Below are positions 2,836-59,945 of a DNA stretch of 64,000 nucleotides, one piece after another; position 1 is the first letter of the stretch; the number at the start of each line of letters is the position of its first letter. Position numbers and translations under genes: made by a program. Origin of the DNA: Mobula hypostoma (taxonomy: Eukaryota); the NCBI RefSeq assembly GCF_963921235.1, contig NC_086097.1, positions 62,932,001-62,996,000 of the forward strand, read 5' to 3'. A model generated the notes under the pieces. That model did not search any database. It saw only the letters and a program-made list of their open reading frames with translations, and had not been told where the DNA came from.

Positions 2836-3842
2836 TCATAGGAGCAGAATTAGCATACTCGTCCCATTGGGCCTCTACCATGTAATAATGACTGGTTTAT
2901 TTTCCCCCTCTACCTCGGTCTCCTGCTTTCTCTCCATAACCTTTGACATCCTTACTAATTAGGAACCTATAAACCTCTACTTTAAAAATACCCAATGACT
3001 TGGCCTCTACAGTCATCTGTGGCAATAAATACCACAGATCTACCATCCTCTTGCTTAAGAAATTCCTTCAGATCTCTGTCCTGAAGATAAGTCCTTTTAT
3101 TCTCATGCTGCTCCCTCTGGTCCTAGACTTTCCCACTGCCGAATCATCCTCCCCACGTCTACCCTACCTAAGCCTTTCAATATCCAATAGATTTGAAGTG
3201 AAATACGCGCCCCCCCCCCCGCACTGTTCCTTTAAACTTCGACGAGTACATGTTCAGGGCCACCGAATGCTGCTCATGTGTTAACCCTTTCATTCCCACA
3301 ATTATTCTCATAAACCTCCTCTGAACCTCTTTAATACTAAAACATTCTTTCTGAGATATAAACCCCAAACTTTTCACAATACTCGAAATGTGGTCTGATC
3401 GATGCCTTATACAGCTTCAGCATTATACCCTTGCTTTTATATTCTAGTCCTCTTGAAATTAATACTAGTATTGCATTTGCCTTCCTTATCATTGAATCAA
3501 CTTACAAATTAACTTTTAGAGAATCCTCAACACAATTCTCAAGTCCCTTTGCACCTCTGATGTCTGTATTCACTCCCATTTGAGAAATTAGTCTATGCTT
3601 TAATTCCTTCTACCAAAACACATGGCCATTTACTTCTTCACACTGTATTCCATCCGCCACTTCTTTGCCCATTCTCCTAATCTGTCCAACTTCTGCAAAA
3701 TCCTTGCTTTCTCAACACTACCTCCCCCCTGCCCAACCACCTTTGTATCATCCACAAACTTGGCCATCAAGCCATCAATTCACGCATCCAGATCAGAAAC
3801 ATATAATGTGAAAAGTAGCAGACCCCGACACCATCTACTAGT
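2836..3842 (-). mobile_element. CR1 LINE 3' fragment, decayed
   Basis: Minus-strand VQRRFMRII-like remnants. 3' UTR similar to the other CR1 copies in the window. Confidence 0.85.
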
Positions 3843-4251
3843 GTTATTGTGATCCTAGATGTCAAATCTTCAATTCTGATAAACATCCTCCTAGCAACTA
3901 TCCTTTCAATCACCATTAGAATTTCATAGTTTCTAGTAAAATCCACCATGTTTCATAACTTTTGATGACATTCAATCAAATCTTGCAAGTAAGGCCTCTA
4001 TATCATATTCCAAGAATCAAGTGATTGAACGTTCATTCTATCAAAAGAAAAAGACAATAGCAATTTCAGAACTCCACCTAGAGCATCAGTAATGCCCCAA
4101 GCGATTACAGCAAGACATCTTCATCATTGTATTTCAAACCTTTCACAATAAATGGTGAACATCCTTCATGCTTATCTGAGAGCTTCATGTTGCCTGGCTA
4201 TTCACTTTCAATGAAACATGTGCTAGTCTCTTTCTGCCTTCCTGTTCCTAC

Positions 4252-30953: not shown

Positions 30954-32090
30954 TACATATCAAGAGTTGCTTTGTACTTCTCATATTAGAGAATATTTTA
31001 AAGTGTGAAATTCAACTCCAGATGAAAATAATGATGAAACATGTTACAACTTTCTAGGTCTGCCCTCCAGGAAACCTTGAAACAAAAACAAAGTAAAGAC
31101 TGCAAACCACAATGGAAATGCACCAAGTGAGAAAGGAAAATTAATGTTTCTGGTATAAGTCGTTTTGATATAGGAATACAATACCTTTAAAGTATTGTAC
31201 TGAACTATTTGCCTCTTGAAACTGCATCAAACACTGGATCATCAATCTTTCTGTATAAAAATGTACTTGGATGATGATCTTTGTTGGAATTCATTTTTTT
31301 ATTTTCATAATTGTCCATAATCACAAGCAATACAAGGCAATCAGGAAACAATTAATCAACATAGTTTAATAAAGTATATAATTAGCCAAGTTTCATCTAA
31401 AATTAGTTCCCATATTGGACATCAAATCATCCACTGAGGTTAGACTCTACTTATCAGGAGTACATTCACTTTAGTGGAAGTAATATCTCTGTCTCTGCTT
31501 TACAGGTCTGTTCTACAGAAGCCTTTGACCTTTAGTCTACACATGCCAAGTATTTTGAACTTTACAAAACCTCACTGAAATAATTTAATTTTTGACTTTG
31601 TCATTTTTATTGCTGTAAACTTTCCTCATCTATTTATGAAAAGTTCAAATTTTTGATTTATATTCTCAGACTGGCATAAGAAGCAAGAATATTTTTCATA
31701 TCTGAAAAGTTCATGAAATGATCTTCATGGCTATAAAATGAAATGAAACTGTCAACAGCTTAGCAGTTAACCTGAAGCTGTATCCGATCTGCACTTCACA
31801 AGTGAAAAGGTCAAAACACTTTGCAGTGGATTAGAGACCTCAGGGCTCTGCACCCAGTCAACAATGGAAAAATACCACGAGCACAGATTGAAAGACGAGC
31901 ACCACTGGCTAAAGCTGGGGTTTCATCATGTGTTGCATAGATACACAAATAATGAAAGGCTGCATTATTTTTAGCCAAAGTTGGAATACTAAGCATTCAG
32001 TAGTTCAAACAAGGCACAGAGTTTCTAAGCAACATACATCAAAGTTGCTGGTGAACGCAGCAGGCCAGGCAGCATCTATAGGAAGAGGCG

Positions 32091-32128
32091 CAGTCGACGT
32101 TTCAGGCCGAGACCCTTCGTCAGGACTA
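32091..32128 (-). ncRNA. Minimal type I hammerhead ribozyme in the PLE pLTR
   Basis: RNA reads UAGUC CUGACGA AGG GUCUCGG CCU GAAA CGUC^GACUG. Core CUGANGA and GAAA intact, stem I UAGUC/GACUG, stem II AGG/CCU, palindromic ACGU stem III, GUC cleavage triplet. Confidence 0.85.
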
Positions 32129-32419
32129 ACTGAAGGAAGAGTGAGTAAGGGATTTGAAAGCTGGAGGGGGAGGGGGAGATGCAAAATGATAGGAGAAGAC
32201 AGGAGGGGGAGGGATAGAGCCGAGAGCTGGACAGGTGATAGGCAAAAGGGGATACGAGAGGATCATGGGACAGGAGGCCTAGGGAGAAAGACGGGGGGGG
32301 GTGACCCAGAGGATGGGCAAGAGGTATATTCAGAGGGACAGAGGGAGAAAAAGGAGAGTGAGAGAAAGAATGTGTGCATAAAAATAAGTAACAGATGGGG
32401 TACGAGGGGGAGGTGGGGC

Positions 32420-35400
32420 CTAGCGGAAGTTAGAGAAGTCGATGTTCATGCCATCAGGTTGGAGGCTACCCAGACGGAATATAAGGTGTTGTTCCTCCAA
32501 CCTGAGTGTGGCTTCATCTTTACAGTAGAGGAGGCCGTGGATAGACATGTCAGAATGGGAATGGGATGTGGAATTAAAATGTGTGGCCACTGGGAGATCC
32601 TGCTTTCTCTGGCGGACAGAGCGTAGATGTTCAGCAAAGCGGTCTCCCAGTCTGCGTCGGGTCTCACCAATATATAAAAGGCCACATCGGGAGCACCGGA
32701 CGCAGTATATCACCCCAGTCGACTCACAGGTGAAGTGATGCCTCACCTGGAAGGACTGTTTGGGGCCCTGAATGGTGGTAAGGGAGGAAGTGTAAGGGCA
32801 TGTGTAGCACTTGTTCCGCTTACACGGATAAGTGCCAGGAGGGAGATCAGTGGGGAGGGATGGGGGGGACGAATGGACAAGGGAGTTGTGTAGGGAGCGA
32901 TCCCTGCGGAATGCAGAGAGAGGGGGGGAGGGAAAGATGTGCTTAGTGGTGGGATCCCGTTGGAGGTGGCGGAAGTTACGGAGAATAATATGTTGGACCC
33001 GGAGGCTGGTGGGGTGGTAGGTGAGGACCAGTGGAACCCTATTCCTAGTGGGGTGGTGGGAGGATGGAGTGAGAGCAGATGTACGTGAAATGGAGGAGAT
33101 GCGTTTAAGAGCAGAGTTGATAGTGGAGGAAGGGAAGCCCCTTTCTTTAAAAAATGAAGACATCTCCCTCGTCCTAGAATGAAAAGCCTCATCCTGAGAG
33201 CAGATGCAGCGGAGACGGAGGAATTGCGAGAAGGGGATGGCGTTTTTGCAAGAGACAGGGTGAGAAGAGGAATAGTCCAGATAGCTGTGAGAGTCAGTAG
33301 GCTTATAGTAGATATCAGTGGATAAGCTGTCTCCAGAGACAGAGACAGAAAGATCTAGAAAGGGGAGGGAGGTGTCGGAAATAGACCAGGTAAACTTGAG
33401 GGCAGGGTGAAAGTTGGAGGCAAAGTTAATAAAGTCAACGAGTTCTGCATGCGTGCAGGAAACAGCGCCAATGCAGTCTTCGATATAGCGAAGGAAAAGT
33501 GGGGGACAGATACCAGAATAGGCATGGAACATAGATTGTTCCACAAACCCAACAAAAAGGCAGGCATAGCTAGGACCCATACGGGTGCCCATAGCTACAC
33601 CTTTAGTTTGGAGGAAATGGGAGGAGCAAAAGGAGAAATTATTAAGAGTAAGGACTAATTCCGCTAGACGGAGCAGAGTGGTGGTAGAGGGGAACTGATT
33701 AGGTCTGGAATCCAAAAAGAAGCGTAGAGCTTTGAGACCTTCCTGATGGGGGATGGAAGTATATAAGGACTGGACATCCATGGTGAAAATAAAGCGGTGG
33801 GGGCCAGGGAACTTAAAATCATCGAAAAGTTTAAGAGCGTGAGAAGTGTCACGAACATAGGTCGGAAGGGATTGAACAAGGGGTGATAAAACAGTGTCGA
33901 GGTATGCAGAAACGAGTTCGGTGGGGCAGGAGCAAGCTGAGACAATAGGTCGGTCAGGACAGGCAGGTTTGTGGATCTTGGGTAGGAGGTAGAAACGGGA
34001 AGTGCGGGGTGTGGGAACTATAAGGTTGGTAGCAGTGGATGGGAGATCCCCTGAGCGGATAAAGTCGTTGATAGTGTGGGAGACAATGGCCTGGTGCTCC
34101 TTGGTGGGGTCACGATCGAGGGGTAAATAAGAGGAGATATCCGCGAGTTGTCGCTGTGCCTCGGCAAGGTAGAGGTCAGTACGCCAGACTACAACAGCAC
34201 CCCCTTTATCAGCGGGTTTAATAATAAGGTTAGGATTAGTGCGGAGGGAGTGGAGAGCAGAGCGTTCCGAAGGAGTGAGGTTGGAATGGGGACAAGGTGC
34301 GGTGAAGTCGAGACGGTTGATGTCCCGTCGGCAGTTAGCAATAAAGAGATCCAGAGCAGGCAGAAGACCAGAGCGGGGTGTCCATGAAGAAGAGGAGGGT
34401 TGAAGACGGGAGAAGGGGGTCATCGGTGGGGGTGGAAGAGTCCTTGCCGAAGAAGTAGGCTCGGAGACGGAGACGGCGGAAGAAAAGTTCCGCATCGTGG
34501 CGAACACTGAATTCGCTGAGGTGTGGGCGAAGGGGGACAAACGTGAGGCCCTTACTGAGAACAGAGCGTTCTGCCTCCGACTGTTGAAGGTCGGAGGGGA
34601 TGGTAAAGACCCGGCACGGATGGGAGCTGGGATCAGAGGGGGGAGGGGGGAGGCTGGTGGTGTCAATGGAGAGGGGAGGGTTGGGGTGAGAGGAAGATGG
34701 AGCCTCTGAGGGCCCAGGAGTTGACGGTGGGATCTGAGGAAGACGGGGCTGCCGAGTGGTGGTGGGGAAAGGGGAGACGGGAGTCACAACAGCAGCACAT
34801 AAAGACCCGGCCTGGAGTTCAAGGCTGGAGTCACAGTTGGTGGTTGTGCAATCGCTGTGAAGGTGTCCATGGTCGTTGCTGGAGTCCGGGTTTTGAATAT
34901 GCCCTGAGGTGTTGGAGCCGCCGAGATCAATGGCAGGCGCCGCAATTGAAAGTTCATGCCTGCTAGCGTCGGGGCCGGCAGGCTCTGGAGTCCGTAGATG
35001 TAAGATCTTACGATCTTTGCCTAACATGACAAAGTCAAAAAAACGGCGATTGCAGGCGTGGATCCGACGGAGGATGAAATAGCGGGTAGGACCATTACAG
35101 ACGGCGAAGAAAGTGTCCCGAAGGTGTGGAAGGGTCTGGGATAGGGACACCAAGTACCTCCTCATGGCGGAGAGCGTCGCCTTCAGAGCTTGACGGGAGA
35201 AGCGGCGAGAGGCAGAGTCAATAAAATGTGAGTACCTGGGATCCTCAGAAGGTCCAAATTGAGAGGCTTGGAAACGAATCCTAAAGCCAACTGGAGTAAG
35301 TTGGCGACGGAGGCACGTTCCAAGAAAGGATACATGGCAGTGATAGCGAGTCTGAGTCAAAATGTGGTCGAAAAGTTGAAGAGCCGAAGAAATTACAGAT

Positions 35401-35474
35401 GGGGAGCAGTGAGAGATGGTTTCACTGAACTCCCGTCGAAGAGAGGATCTAAACTTCTTCGGTGTAGGCATCAC
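32420..35474 (-). pseudogene. PLE polyprotein (N-terminal domain, RT, Cys-rich linker, GIY-YIG endonuclease), about 1017 aa if one frameshift is repaired
   Basis: HVSFLGTCLRRQLTPVG; SEAERSVLSKGLTFVP; IIKPADKGGAVVV; FYLLPKIHK; MDVQSLYTSIP; QTKGVAMGT; FLRYIED (YIDD to YIED); CKRNKCYTC; VIYCVRCSRCGLLYIGETRR. ORFs 34335-35474 and 32420-34666 join at an extra C in GATGACCCCCTTC (about 34415-34420). Confidence 0.93.
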
Positions 35475-35989
35475 CAGAAGAGGCTTCGCAGTAGTGAATT
35501 TCTAAGGTTAACTTTCTTCTTTCTTGTAAATGATTCTGAAGATTACTGTTTATTTGGCTTGACATATAAGAAAACAATCAAGTTCCAAAGGCATGGTAGT
35601 AGTTTCAGTAATGGAAGGGCTGAGGTAATGTTAGCAATAAAAGGTGAAAATAGATTTTCCTGGAGGTAAGCTGGATAAGTGACCAGTTTGTCATTCCCAA
35701 GAATGAGCAGTAACACCAGTATCTAGGACAGCTGGGTTTAACTTGAATGATCAGAGAGGATAGCAGATTTAATGGTAAACGCTGAGGGAACCATCTTTGC
35801 TCAAAGCATTCTTATCCTTTGAGTATTTTGATGGATTGTTGAACACTGCAAATTATCCCTAAACAATCTAAATAAGAGCTATTCACTGTCAAGAATCAGT
35901 GAAGAATACAATTAAAGCAAAGAATTAAACTACTTTTTCTCCTGCCTGCATCCATGTCTCCCCAATGTTTTCTGGCCACAATTTAAAGT

Positions 35990-36118
35990 TGCCCTGTTGA
36001 AGATCCTCAGCCCAAAACATTGACTTTTTATTAATCTGCATAGATGCTCTCTGACCTGTTGAGTTCCTCTAGTATTTTGTGTGTGTTGTTCCGGATTTCC
36101 AGCATCTGCAGAATCTTT
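35990..36118 (+). mobile_element. Penelope-like pLTR relic
   Basis: CTGTTGAAGATCCTCAGCCCAAAACATTGAC...CCAGCATCTGCAG. Confidence 0.75.
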
Positions 36119-36224
36119 AATGTTTCTTTAAAGTTGTCTTTTTATTCAATGCACTTATTTGGTGGCAACTTTAACCAATGGCCTTGATATCAACTTATGG
36201 GCAACAAACAATACATAATTGTTA

Positions 36225-36395
36225 GGCAACACACACAAAATGCTGGAGGAACTCAGCAGGCCAGGCAATATCTATGAAAAAAGAGTACAGTTGACATTTC
36301 AGGCTGAGAACCTTCATCAGGACTGGAGAAAAAAAGATGAGGAGTCTCATCTTTGGAATATGTTGCTTGGATTTCCAGCATCTGCAGATTTTCTT
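36225..36395 (-). mobile_element. Penelope-like pLTR with near-intact hammerhead and inverted tail
   Basis: Minus strand reads CAGTC CTGATGA AGG TTCTCAG CCT GAAA TGTC AACTG (about 36325-36288). The tail GTTGCTTGGATTTCCAGCATCTGCAG is on the plus strand at 36362-36387. Confidence 0.8.
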
Positions 36396-46102: not shown

Positions 46103-47630
46103 CATAGAAACATAGAAAAATAGAAAATAGGTGCAGGAGTAGGCCATTCAGCCCTTCAAGCCTGCACCACCATTCATTACGATCATGGCTGATCATCCAA
46201 CTCAGAACCCTGTACCTGCCTTCTCTCCATACCCCTTGATCCCTTTAGCCACAAGGGGCTTATCTAACTCCCTCTTAAATATAGCCAATGAACTGGCCTC
46301 AACTGTTTCCTGTGGCAGAGAATTCCACAGATTCACCACTCTCTGTGTGAAGAAGTTTTTCCTCATATGGGTCCTAAAAGGCTTCCCCTTTATCCTCAAA
46401 CTGTGACCCCTCATTCTGGACTTCCCCAACATCGGGAACAATCATCCTGCATCTAGCCTGTCCAATCCCTTTAGAATTTCATATGTTTCAATCAGATCCC
46501 CCCTCAATCTTCTAAATTCCAGAGAGTATAAGCCTAGTCGATCCAGTCTTTCATCATATGAAAGTTCTGCCATCCTAGGAATCAATCTGGTGAACCTTCT
46601 TTATACCCCCTCTATGGCAAAAATGTCTTTCCTCGGATTAGGAGACCAAAACTGCACACAATACTCTAGGTGTGGTCTCACCAAGGCCTTGTACAACTGC
46701 AGTAGTACCTCCCTGCTCCTGTACTTGAATCCTCTTGCTATGAATGCCAGCATACCATTTGCCTTTTTCACCGCCTGCTGTACCTGCATGCCCACTTTCA
46801 ATGACTGGTGTATAATGACACCCAGGTCTCGTTGCACCTCCCCTTTTCCTAATCGGCCACCATTCAGATAACAATCTGTTTTCCTGTCCTTGCCATCAAA
46901 GTGGATAACCTCACATTTATCCACATTAAGTTGCATCTGCCATGAATTTGCCCACTCACCTAACCTATCCAAGTCACCCTGCATCCTCTTAGCATCCTCC
47001 TTACAGCTAACACTGCCGCCCAGCTTCGTGTCATCCGCAAACTTGGAGATGCTGCATTTAATTCCCTCGTCTAAGTCATTAATATATATTGTAAACAACT
47101 GGGGTCCCAGCACTGAGCCTTGTGGTACCCCACTAGTCACTGCCTGCCATTCTGAAAAGGTCCCGTTTATTCCCACTCTTTGCTTCCTGTCTGCTAACCA
47201 ATTCTCTATCCACATCAATACCATTCCCCCAATACCGTGTGCTTTAAGTTTGCACACTAATCTCCTGTGTGGGACCTTGTCAAAAGCCTTTTGAAAATCC
47301 AAATATACCACATCCACTGGTTCTCCCTTACCCACTCTACTAGTTACATCCTCAAAAAATTCTATGAGATTCATCAGACATGATTTTCCTTTCACAAATC
47401 CATGCTGATTTTGTCTGATGATTTCACCGCTTTCCAAATGTACTGTTATCACATCTTTGATAACTGACTCTAGCATTTTCCCCACCAGCGATGTCAGGCT
47501 AACCAGTCTATAATTCCCCGGTTTCTCTCTCCCTCCTTTTTTAAAAAGCGGGGTTACATTAGCCACCCTCCAATCCTCAGGAACTAATCCAGAATCTAAA
47601 GAGTTTTGAAAAATTATCACTAATGCATCC
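46103..47630 (-). mobile_element. Young CR1 LINE, 5'-truncated; RT ORF 46601-47620 (339 aa)
   Basis: DVVYLDFQKAFDKVPH, SGVPQGSVLGPQLFTIYINDL, intact KFADDTK, (TTTCTATG)n tail. Confidence 0.96.
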
Positions 47631-47654
47631 TATGAAGCCTTCTCCTATGAGCCT

Positions 47655-48885
47655 TCTCACAATTCCTCCATCTCCGCCGCATCTGCTCTCAGGATGAGGC
47701 TTTTCATTCCAGGATGAAGGAAATGTCCTACTTTTTAAAAGAAAGGGGCTTCCCTTCCTCCACCATCACTCTGCTCTCAAACGTATCTCTCCCATTTCAC
47801 ACACATCTGCTTTCATCCCATCCTCCCGCCACCCTACTAGGAATAGGGTTCCCCTTGTCCTCACCTACCACCCCACCAGCCTCCGGGTTCAACATATAAT
47901 TCTCCGCAACTTCCGCCACCTCTAACGGGATCCCACCACTAAGCACATCTTTCCCTCCCCTCCTCTTTCGGTTTTCTACAGGGATCGCTCCCTACGTGAC
48001 TCCCTTGTCCATTCGTGCCCCCCCATCCCTTCCCACCGATCTCCCTCCAGGCACTTATCCTTGTTAGCGGAACAAGTGCTACACACGCCCTTACACTTCC
48101 TCCCTCACCACCATTCAGGGCCCTAGACAGTCCTTCCAGGTGAGGCGACTGGAGTGATATACTGTGTCCGGTGCTCCAGATGTGGCCTTCTATATATTGG
48201 CGAGACCTGACGCAGGCTGGGAGACCGTTTCACTGAACACCTACTCTCCGTCCGCCAGAGAAAGCAGGATCTCCCAGTGGCCACACATTTTAATTCCACA
48301 TCCCATTCCCATTCTGACATGTCTATCCATGGTCTCCTCTACTGTCAAGGTGAAACCACACTCAGGTTGGATGAACAACACCTTATATTCCATCTGGGTA
48401 GCCTCCAACCTGATGGCATGAACATTGACTTCTCTAACTTCCGTTAACGCCCCACCTCCCCTTCGTACCCCATCCCTTATTTATTTATTATTATCATCAT
48501 CATCAATTTTTTTTCTCTCTCTCCTTTTTCTCCCTCTGTCCCTTTCACTATACTCCTTGCCCAACCTCTGGGATTCCCCCCTCCCCCTTTCTTTCTCCCT
48601 GGGCCTCCCGTCCCATGATCCTCTCATATCCCTTTTGCCAATCAACTGTCCAGCTCTTGGCTCCATCCCTCCCCCTCCTGCCTTCTCCTATCATTTCGGA
48701 TCTCCCCCTCCCCCTCCCACTTTCAAATCTCTTACAATCTCTTCTTTCAGTTAGTCCTGATGAAGGGTCTCGGCCCAAAACGTCAACTGTACCTCTTCCT
48801 ATAGATGCTGCCTGGCCTGCTGCATTCACCAGCATTTTTTATGTGTGTTGCTTGAAATTCCAGCATCTGCAGATTTCCTCGTGTT
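47655..48885 (+). mobile_element. Penelope-like element 3' portion, same family as 32030-35498
   Basis: Highly similar to the reverse complement of 32030-33230, with frameshifts. Hammerhead CTGATGAAGGGTCTCGGCCCAAAACGTC has GAAA changed to AAAA. Confidence 0.93.
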
Positions 48886-49104
48886 TGTGTTTGATAGATG
48901 TAGTCAGGTTGTCCTTTTAATTAATAATGTAATGTGCTATCAAGCTGAATATTGCTTAGAGGGAGCACTGGCTGTGGCACTAACTAAATATAGCCAAGCT
49001 TTGATGGTATAACTGCCAAAGTGTGATCAAGTTAAGTGATAAGTGGTGACTGAATCATCCGGAAGTGACATACCTAATTCCGCTATTCCTTCAAAGCTTA
49101 TAGA

Positions 49105-50530
49105 ACTTACTCTTTGGAGAGAAGGAGGATGAGAGGAGACATGATAGAGGTATACAAGATATTAAGAGGAATAGATAGAGTGGATAGCCAGTGCTTCTTC
49201 CCCAGGGCATCACTGCTCATTACAAGAGGACATGGCTTTAAGGTAAGGGGTGGGAAGTTCAAGGGGGATATTAGAGGAAGGTTTTTTACTCAGAGAGTGG
49301 TTGGTGAATGGAATACACTGCTTGAGTCAGTGGTGGAGGCAGATACACTAGTGAAATTTAAGAGACTGCTAGACAGGCAATGACTAGTGGGGTACCCGCA
49401 AGGCTCAGTGCTGGGACCCCAGTTGTTTACAACATATATTAATAACTTAGACGAGGGAATTAAATGCAGCATCTCCAAGTTTGCAGATGACACGAAGCTG
49501 GGCGGCAGTGTTAGCTGTGAGGAGGATGCTAAGAGGATGCAGGGTGACTTGGATAGGTTAGGTGAGTGGGCAAATTCATGGCAGATGCAACTTAATGTGG
49601 ATAAATGTGAGGTTATCCACTTTGGTGGCAAAAACAGCAAAACAGATTATTATCTGAATGGATAATATTATCCAATTAGGAAAAGGGGAGGTGCAACGAG
49701 ACCTGGGTGTCATTGTACACCAGTCATTGAAAGTGGGCATGCAGGTACAGCAGGCGGTGAAAAAGGCGAATGGTATGCTGACACTTATAGCAAGAGGATT
49801 CGAGTACAGGAGCAGGGAGGTACTACTGCAGTTGTACAAGGCCTTGGTGAGACCACACCTGGAGTATTGTGTGCAGTTCTGGTCCCCTAATCTGAGGAAA
49901 AACATTCTTGCCATAGAGGGAGTACAAAGAAGGTTCACCAGATTGATTCCTGGGATGGCAGGACTTTCATATGATGAAAGATTGGATCGACTAGGCTTAT
50001 ACTCTCTGGAATTTAGAAGATTGAGAGGGGATCTTATTGAAATGTATACAATTCTAAAGGGATTGGACAGGCTAGATGTAGGAAGATTGTTCCCGATGTT
50101 GGGGAAGTCCAGAACGAGGGGTCACAGTTTGAGGATAAAGGTGAAGCCTTTTAGGACCGAGATGAGGAAAAATTTCTTCACACAGGGAGTGGTGAATCTG
50201 TGGAATTCTCTGCCACAGGAAACAGTTGAGGCCAGTTCATTGGCTATATTTAAGAGGGAGTTAGATATGGCCCTTGTGGCTAAAGGGATCAGGGGGGATG
50301 GAGAGAAGGCAGGTACAGGGTTCTGAGTTGGATGATCAGCCATGATCATACTGAATGGCGGTGCAGGCTCAAAGGGCCGAATGGCCTACTCCTGCACCTG
50401 TTTTCTATGTTTCTATGAATATGGAGGAATTTAAGGTGGGGGGTTATATTGGAGGTAGGGTTTAAGGGTCAGCACAACATTGTGGGCCGAAGAGTCTGTA
50501 CTGAGCTGTACTATTCTATGTTCTGTGTTC
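49105..50530 (+). mobile_element. CR1 3' fragment (second subfamily) split by a younger CR1
   Basis: ERRRMRGDMIEVYKIL...FKRLLDR stops at 49378 and resumes at about 50419 (ATATGGAGGAA...TATTCTATGTTCTGTGTTCT). Confidence 0.85.
49379..50418 (+). mobile_element. Young CR1 LINE, 5'-truncated, nested insertion
   Basis: PQGSVLGPQLF...KFADDTK...KAGTGF and TTTCTATG tail. Nearly identical to the reverse complement of 46103-47140. Confidence 0.95.
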
Positions 50531-58484: not shown

Positions 58485-59945
58485 AAAGTTCAGAGTAAAT
58501 TTATTATTAAATAGATATATGTCACCATATACAACCCTGAGGTGCATTTTCTTGCGTGTATAATCAGAATCAGGTTTATTATCACCAGCATGTGACGTGA
58601 AATTTGTTAACTTAGCAGCAGCAGTTCAATAAATACATAATCTAGCAGAGAGAGAGATAAAAAATAATAAATAAAATAAAATAATAATAAATGAACAAGT
58701 AAATCAATTACGTATATTGAATAGATATTTTAAAATGTGCAAAAACAGAAATACAGTATATCAAAAAAAGTGAGGTAGTGTCCAAAGCTTCAATGTCCAT
58801 TTAGGAATCGGATGGCAGAGGGGAAGAAGCTGTTCCTGAATTGCTGAGTGTGTGCCTTCAGGCTTCTGTATCTCCTATCTGATGGCAATAGTGAGAAAAA
58901 GGCATGCCCTGGGCCATGGAGGTTCTTAATAATAGACGCTGCCTTTCTGAGACACCGCTCCCTAAAGATGTCCTGGGTACTTCATAGGCTAGTGCCCAAA
59001 ATGGAGCCGACTAAATTTACAACCTTCTGCAGTTTCCTTCGGTCCTGTGCAGTAGCCCCTCCATATCAGACAGTAATATATCCATTAAAGAATAATAATA
59101 ACCATAACAGAATCAATGAAAGACTGCACCAACATGTTCAACCAGTGTGCAAAAGACAACAAACTGTAAAAATATAGAAACAAAGAAATTATAATTATAA
59201 ATAAACAAACAACAAATCTTGAGAACATGAGATAAAGAGTCCATGAAAGTGAGACCATAAGCTGGGGAACATTTCAGTGATGGGGCTAGTGAAGCTAAGT
59301 GGTTATCCCCTTTGCTTCAAAAACCTGATGGCTGAGGGGTAATCACTGTTTCTGAACTTGATGGTGTGAGTCATGAGGCTCCTGTACCTTCTTCCTGATG
59401 GCAGCAGTGAGAAAAGAGCATGACCAGGGTGGTGGGAGTTCCTGATGATGGATGCTACATGTAGATGGCATGGAGAGCTTCTCCCATGATGAAGGGGCCG
59501 TATCCACTACTTTCTGTATGATTTTATGTTTCAGGGCATTGGTGTTTCTATACCAGGCTGTGATACAGCCAGTCAATATACTCTCCACTAGGCATCTGTA
59601 GAAGTATGTTGAAGCTTTAGATATCATGACGAATCTTCGCAAACTCCTCAGGAAGTAGAGGTGCTACCTAGCTTTCTTCACAATTGCACTTACAGGCTGT
59701 GCCCAAGACAGGTCCTCTGAAATGATAAAACTGAGGAACTTGAAGCTGATGACCCAGTCCACCTCTGATTCTCCGACAAAGACTGTCTCATGGACCTTTG
59801 GTTTCCTTCTCCTGAAGTCAATAATCAGCTCCTTGGTCTCACTGACACTGAGTGAGAGGTAGTTGTTGTGGCACCACTCAGTCAGATTTTTAATTTCCCT
59901 CCCACCTTTGATTCAGCCTAAGACAATGGTGTCATCAACAAATTT
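58485..59945 (-). mobile_element. Rex1/Babar-type LINE with a second Rex-type 3' fragment nested at about 58562-59075
   Basis: RRFVMISKASTYFYRCLVESILTGCITAWYRN. Two separate 3' tails: (TTTGAAC)n at about 58485 and AATAAACCTGATTCTGATT at about 58562-58580. Confidence 0.8.

Follow-up and report, generated by a model that had tools for sequence, protein, structure and literature searches.

The 38-nt motif on the minus strand of this stretch is best read as the minimal type I hammerhead ribozyme in the pseudo-LTR (pLTR) of a Neptune-like Penelope family (probability about 0.85), and the focal copy as a passenger in an insertion that has since been broken. This reading rests on the observed sequence, position, element anatomy, decay pattern and covariation in related elements. 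Motifs of this kind, fish Penelope-like elements (PLEs) included, have been known since 2014, and the focal copy is an ordinary example.

An earlier sequence-only reading had quoted a 38-nt minus-strand RNA, which lies at 32128-32091, and most of its description of the catalytic centre held. Every core position is present (C3-A9, G12-A15.1, U16.1 at 32097 and C17 at 32096), and the cut that it predicted between 32096 and 32095 is correctly placed by hammerhead numbering. The five pairs that it counted in stem I are four Watson-Crick pairs and a terminal U.G, in an open-ended stem of type I topology, and positions 15.1-16.1 read ACGU, the palindrome that it had proposed instead of stem III, with no helix III in the monomer (Table 1). 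A full minimal-hammerhead descriptor, which asked for the core boxes, 4 bp or more in stem I and a minimum of 2-3 bp in stem II, matched only here on both strands of the window, that is, the whole 64 kb stretch analysed, against 0.010-0.070 matches expected from 500 dinucleotide shuffles. Two loose core boxes without stems were in marginal excess, with 12 in the window against a mean of 6.7 (5 of 100 shuffles reached 12). The Infernal/Rfam hammerhead check that had been suggested came out negative: the whole window gave no match at gathering score, and 31900-32450 at E<=10 gave three weak matches, none to a hammerhead family.

Table 1. Coordinates of the hammerhead motif, its parts and the element that carries it
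Feature	Position	Strand	Basis
Minimal type I hammerhead motif, 38 nt	32091..32128	-	core, stems and palindrome from sequence; descriptor match
Stem I, 5' strand	32124..32128	-	pairs with 32095-32091; 4 Watson-Crick + U.G
Core box C3 U4 G5 A6 N7 G8 A9 (N7 = C)	32117..32123	-	hammerhead numbering
Unpaired extra A separating A9 from G10.1 (feature of the class)	32116	-	13/13 window copies; 15/18 related motifs; described for the class in PMC4209133
Stem-loop II: G10.1.U11.1, G-C, G-C, U.G, loop CUCG	32104..32115	-	energy and conserved register in relatives
U11.1, from C by probable CpG deamination	32104	-	11.1/12 dinucleotide counts, 13 copies
Core box G12 A13 A14 A15.1	32100..32103	-	hammerhead numbering
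Palindrome ACGU (A15.1-C-G-U16.1) replacing stem III; putative dimer interface	32097..32100	-	A15.1-C-G-U16.1
Predicted cleavage site after GUC (C17)	32095..32096	-	hammerhead numbering
Predicted 10-bp competing hairpin, upstream pyrimidine-rich flank + core	32113..32137	-	flank ends in CAG, suggestive of a splice acceptor
3' pseudo-LTR region	32027..32419	-	copy stops before the family's ~35-40 base tail; loose contig ends at 32027 (runs X1, X5, X19)
Penelope-like ORF	32420..35471	-	first Met 35471; DKG motif; RT; linker CX4CxxC 32824-32798; GIY-YIG from 32713
ORF lesions	frameshift near 34415; YIED 33487-33476	-	sequence and contig depth
Candidate target-site duplication CTTAGAAA, 5' copy	35499..35506	-	longest word common to both end regions
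Candidate target-site duplication CTTAGAAA, 3' copy	32022..32029	-	3 bases shared with element end; 8-base word
Nearest same-strand hammerhead relic, 4.2 kb upstream, older separate insertion	36288..36325	-	76% identity; core boxes intact; damage in the palindrome, in stem II and at the first pair of stem I

Stem II is where the sequence-only reading went wrong. It had drawn three pairs (A-U, G-C, G-C) closed by a 7-nt loop, a register predicted at -1.1 kcal/mol against -2.3 kcal/mol for the family register, in which the extra A is left unpaired and stem II has 4 bp. Over seven equal-length motifs the family register leaves 96% of cells paired against 62% for the other, whose A-U pair holds in one of the seven sequences, the focal copy itself. 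The three-pair stem is an artefact of a decayed base at position 11.1. This base also contradicts the description of the motif as intact, since position 11.1 is U here, whereas 9 of the 13 window copies and 17 of the 18 related motifs have C; in the focal copy a G.U wobble now stands in place of the conserved G10.1-C11.1 pair, and the family keeps the C11.1 form. Across the 13 window copies the dinucleotide 11.1/12 is CA in seven, TG in four, CG in two and TA in none. The occurrence of CA, TG and CG without TA points to an ancestral CG, and the U11.1 of the focal copy is therefore most likely a product of deamination.

The motif begins 297 bases past the stop codon of an ORF with RT and GIY-YIG domains, on its sense strand, which bears out the proposed location in a PLE. 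The ORF had also been called dead, rightly so, as its frame is shifted by one base near 34415 and its RT carries YIED where the YxDD motif would be expected (YIDD in relatives). At position 33479, within the YIED codon, most contig depth in four runs carries another letter, and the extra base at 34415 is absent from 22%, 58% and 98% of contig depth in three runs. Apart from the break, the element has the anatomy of an EN+ Penelope-like element: a single ORF with RT, DKG and, at the C-terminus, a GIY-YIG with CCHH, the Pfam match to GIY-YIG (E=0.0008) falling below the curated cut-off. A CX2-5CxxC linker between RT and endonuclease is reported to mark Neptune/Nematis, not Penelope/Poseidon (bioRxiv 2021.04.23.441226), and it is by its CX4CxxC linker, a motif common to Neptune and Nematis, that we class the element as probably Neptune-like. 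Its nearest proteins are gene models of Mobula (87-94% identity), Hypanus (78-81%) and Chiloscyllium and Rhincodon (63-72%), followed at 45-56% identity by others, a few of them from named marine invertebrates, a ranking that suggests a ray as the probable host. Two ray gene models named for kinase-domain and chitinase-domain proteins (P0002 and P0017) match the PLE ORF at 78-87%, and represent either an exonised element or an annotation artefact. A search of viral contigs with the profile of the element protein gave no relative, and a 21-base tail pattern had 0 matches in viral contigs and in metagenome contigs.

The insertion has a single pLTR: no copy of the 3' region at comparable identity was found upstream of the ORF, and the focal copy shows neither the tandem nor the partial-tandem layout with two pLTRs. 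Single-pLTR copies are described as the common state of PLEs (PMC4209133; bioRxiv 10.64898/2026.07.22.740005). Two relics, at 35989-36026 (+) and 36288-36325 (-), were considered as the element's 5' pLTR and excluded, being separate insertions with 70-76% identity. At its 3' end the focal copy stops at about 32027, where contigs of three runs continue into the family tail, and it may be one tandem unit that lacks the tail alone. Its 5' end (35498-35471) provides only about 30 bases ahead of the first Met. Summed contig depth in three runs, which is not a measure of copy number, was a few hundred-fold higher at the 3' end than in the 5' ORF, a pattern that 5'-truncated copies would produce. From 32250 to 32027, across the hammerhead to the element end, one minus-strand frame has no stop.

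Comparative evidence came from 90 loci encoding protein relatives, obtained by a protein-alignment search (80 metagenome loci, the best 80 of 523, and 10 from the genome collection), in which two core boxes and a palindrome were sought with no stem demanded. These boxes occurred 21 times in sense and 3 times in antisense, against 0.52 per shuffled set; the three antisense matches come from loci with inverted repeats and are placed upstream of the ORF. Both stems, with 3 bp or more in stem I and 2 bp or more in stem II, were present in 20 of the 24 matches, and no match in 100 shuffled sets had both stems of at least 3 bp. In most loci the motif lies 107-531 bases beyond the protein match. After removal of two duplicates, 18 distinct motifs remained; although absent from the descriptor, the class features G10.1-C11.1 and the extra A before G10.1 recur in 17 and 15 of them, respectively, and ACGU is found in 8, within a set selected for having a palindrome. 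Among seven equal-length motifs, the focal one included, two-sided changes affect seven of nine pairs and the covariation score of 0.84 was reached in 0 of 500 shuffles; the seven were picked by hand from the 24 matches for equal length and ACGU, and kinship alone can beat shuffles. The expectation that the stems covary across copies found support between related elements, in that selected set, and failed among 10 gaplessly aligned window copies, whose score of 0.173 (0.177 when shuffled) was reached by 318 of 500 shuffles. For such a comparison, copies that belong to a single family and are dead make an unsuitable set. Judged by its sequences, the clade of related elements very probably carries a true hammerhead. 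One of these loci (L007) shows a tandem pLTR layout: a 98% direct repeat stands at both ends (1-283 and 3838-4122), and the hammerhead, at 323, precedes the ORF and lies just past the 285-base direct repeat. The ten genome-collection loci (L081-L090), with Penelope-like ORFs and in several cases hammerheads, come from three assemblies labelled as bacterial MAGs, eight of them from a single one, and are probably animal host DNA binned into MAGs.

Within the window, a profile search for the hammerhead-plus-tail repeat found 17 pieces, or roughly one every 4 kb. Of these, 13 span the motif region and enter the motif counts; the other four lack it and were left out. The core is intact in 2 of the 13 copies, and stem I and the palindrome are intact as well in the focal copy alone. 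Damage to the motif in window copies falls mainly at CpG sites. Compared with the copy at 47652-48853, the focal copy has lost 9 of 27 scored CpGs, a rate that comes from two sequences and from changes that cannot be fully polarised. With about one-third of sites decayed, the probability that at most one of the five CpGs of the motif is lost is 0.46, so the surviving core has no need of selection; selection on the focal copy was set aside, chance survival being explanation enough. Among the 40 of 373 variants listed from the contigs of four runs, none fell at a hammerhead position.

Minimal hammerheads have been described in the pLTRs of metazoan PLEs, including Xena, Poseidon and Neptune of fishes (Cervera and de la Pena 2014, PMC4209133). 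In that account, members of the class carry an additional nucleotide past A9, conserve the G10.1-C11.1 pair and have a palindrome; monomers are uncleaved, dimers and trimers cleave poorly, and the intron end of Drosophila virilis Penelope maps to helix I. The focal motif agrees with this description in its type I topology, a helix I with 4-5 bp, the additional nucleotide separating 9 from 10.1, palindromic 15.2-16.2, lack of helix III and placement in the pLTR, as well as in the prevalence of single copies from truncated elements. It departs from it in the G.U at 10.1-11.1 and in a helix II of 4 bp against 7-8 bp in Schistosoma families, and rays are not known to be among the hosts named in that report. 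Small PLE hammerheads cleaving as dimers were reported by Lunse, Weinberg and Breaker (RNA Biol 14:1499, as cited in PMC6765202), and the citing review states that a tandem layout helps dimer formation. An extremely short palindromic stem III and proposed cleavage as a dimer are common to these and the focal motif, whose locus, unlike theirs, has no tandem partner.

The closest vertebrate comparison is PAc, the Poseidon element of Anolis carolinensis, whose hammerhead is reported to need the element protein, to be dispensable for insertion in vitro and, in the data described, to leave no RNA-seq reads ending at the cut site (Frangieh et al. 2024, PMC11167929). In both elements a vertebrate PLE pLTR hammerhead is followed by two classes of 3' end 30-40 bases apart. 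PAc belongs to Penelope/Poseidon and is described as starting its ORF inside the ribozyme, whereas the focal element has the Neptune/Nematis CX2-5CxxC linker and its hammerhead region contains no start codon in a long open frame. For Xenopus, a preprint reports cleavage of one of nine predicted dimer elements and none of the other eight, and the same source records retrozymes and PLEs in one chondrichthyan genome (bioRxiv 10.64898/2026.07.22.740005). Animal non-LTR retrozymes also carry type I hammerheads in PLE-derived repeats (PMC7229834; bioRxiv 10.64898/2026.07.22.740005), but these are described as non-coding tandem repeats with a hammerhead per unit (PMC7229834), and this identity was excluded for the focal motif, which is single and sits in an ORF-bearing element. 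Beyond the 2026 preprint, no paper on ray or shark PLE hammerheads was among the matches listed, and supplements may hold chondrichthyan motifs. Given that PLE pLTR minimal hammerheads of fishes were described in 2014 and that single copies are usual, one more copy matters little. For the class as a whole, the question is the function of the ribozyme, given its dispensability for insertion of the anole element in vitro. The ray family, with its high copy number and its young, near-full-length members, provides usable material for that question, but a tandem copy that has C11.1 would serve better as a substrate than the focal one.

By analogy with the published class, we propose that an active tandem source element would place two motifs in one transcript, where they would pair via ACGU and swap stem I strands, each core then cutting its partner after GUC. 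Cleavage would probably be aided by the element's own protein, again as in that class, and the same analogy underlies any putative role of dimer formation and cleavage in transposition. The focal copy would have been carried along in a fairly young insertion of near unit length with a single pLTR, broken since, and its core would survive because little time has elapsed, with one CpG event changing G10.1-C11.1 to G.U. As a monomer it should not cut. Weak cleavage in an engineered dimer is plausible, at somewhat below even odds.

An alternative that differs from this explanation only in residual activity in vitro is that the focal copy is catalytically dead, U11.1 and competing hairpins abolishing cleavage even in a forced dimer; we consider the chances of this to be evenly balanced. 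The near-constancy of G10.1-C11.1 in related motifs (17 of 18) agrees with it, as does the predicted weakening of stem II from -3.9 kcal/mol in a natural C11.1 copy (48764-48776) to -2.3 kcal/mol. So do the cleavage failures reported for eight of nine predicted dimer elements in Xenopus (bioRxiv 10.64898/2026.07.22.740005). In the nearest-neighbour model, whose energies leave out core tertiary contacts, the isolated motif favours an inactive hairpin in which the core GACG, available because N7 is C, pairs with CGUC (-11.0 against -7.0 kcal/mol), and two copies favour an inactive duplex over the active dimer (-30.3 against -11.5 kcal/mol). With the native flanks, the upstream hairpin at 32137-32113 leaves a stem I probability of only 0.001-0.009. 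The same model, however, gives a stem I probability below 0.05 in 9 of 20 relatives, many of them presumably functional, so predicted misfolding is weak evidence on the focal copy and was set aside as a discriminating test. Moreover, G.U still pairs, and one related motif (L022) has G.U at 10.1-11.1. Hammerheads tolerate purine-pyrimidine swaps at 10.1-11.1 with partial loss of activity, which also speaks against complete inactivation, and our literature search found no measurement of the effect of G.U at this pair.

Activity of the ribozyme at the focal locus appears very unlikely, and the copy very probably does nothing where it sits. Nearby there is no second intact hammerhead, there is no upstream pLTR, and the focal copy yields no element protein; the class, in addition, is reported not to cleave as monomers, and to have low activity as dimers (PMC4209133) or to depend on protein (PMC11167929). 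For the locus to be active, a host or upstream transcript would have to run through the copy, which would then cut in partnership with another transcript of itself, a family RNA acting in trans or the 36.3 kb relic, a reading to which we give little credence. In its favour, no other copy in the window keeps core, stem I and palindrome together intact, and the family is abundant, with 13 motif-bearing copies in 64 kb, so that partners in trans may exist; by inspection, a core and a 5-bp stem I for the focal cut site might come from the relic at 36288-36325. Yet stem II of that relic is damaged, and the focal copy itself has U11.1 and lacks a 5' pLTR. A Pfam scan of 46 of the 96 frames of at least 90 aa, in which short exons would be missed, found no host exon, only RT fragments, one ALKBH8_N match above its cut-off and three weak matches. 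The published class is weak even as cis dimers (PMC4209133), and for the anole element no RNA-seq reads ending at the cut site are reported (PMC11167929).

A gated ribozyme is also very unlikely. Here the pyrimidine-rich flank ending in CAG before stem I would be both the acceptor of a pLTR intron and an arm of the core-locking hairpin at 32137-32113, and splicing, a splicing factor or the element protein would switch the ribozyme on. Such a gate would explain the low activity of PLE hammerheads in vitro. Folding predicts the hairpin in the focal copy, inspection points to it in some relatives (L015, for example), and the intron end of Drosophila virilis Penelope is likewise reported at helix I (PMC4209133). 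It is not general, however, since the stem I probability ranges from 0 to 0.98 across 20 relatives, over which the hairpin is not conserved, and it was excluded as a conserved feature. Nor was a GT-AG joint present among the joints listed (15 of 556) in the contig runs, which may not derive from RNA.

That the motif is a chance look-alike, or a protein-binding pLTR signal that is no hammerhead, is scarcely credible: the lack of an Rfam match and of covariation among window copies, together with the reported dispensability of cleavage for insertion of the anole element in vitro (PMC11167929), would fit it, but the core is invariant and the stems covary across distant related elements, the extra A and G10.1-C11.1 recur though outside the descriptor, and the chance rate is 0.01-0.07 per window.

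Further observations concern the repeats of the window. Their 3' ends form two groups separated by about 35-40 bases, which resembles the pair of start sites for reverse transcription reported in the anole element. At 36208-36395 an inverted tail piece (36357-36395, +) comes before a short minus-strand hammerhead relic, and this arrangement is the head-to-head inversion typical of PLE insertions. An inverted pair of about 1 kb (46111-47146 and 49374-50417, 93.8% identity) overlaps an RT-coding frame (Pfam RVT_1, 46604-47629) and flanks a PLE 3' fragment at 47652-48889. Pfam ALKBH8_N, a model commonly matched by the tails of LINE RT proteins, was found at 134-451 (E 1.4e-6) and 59346-59663 (E 0.0076).
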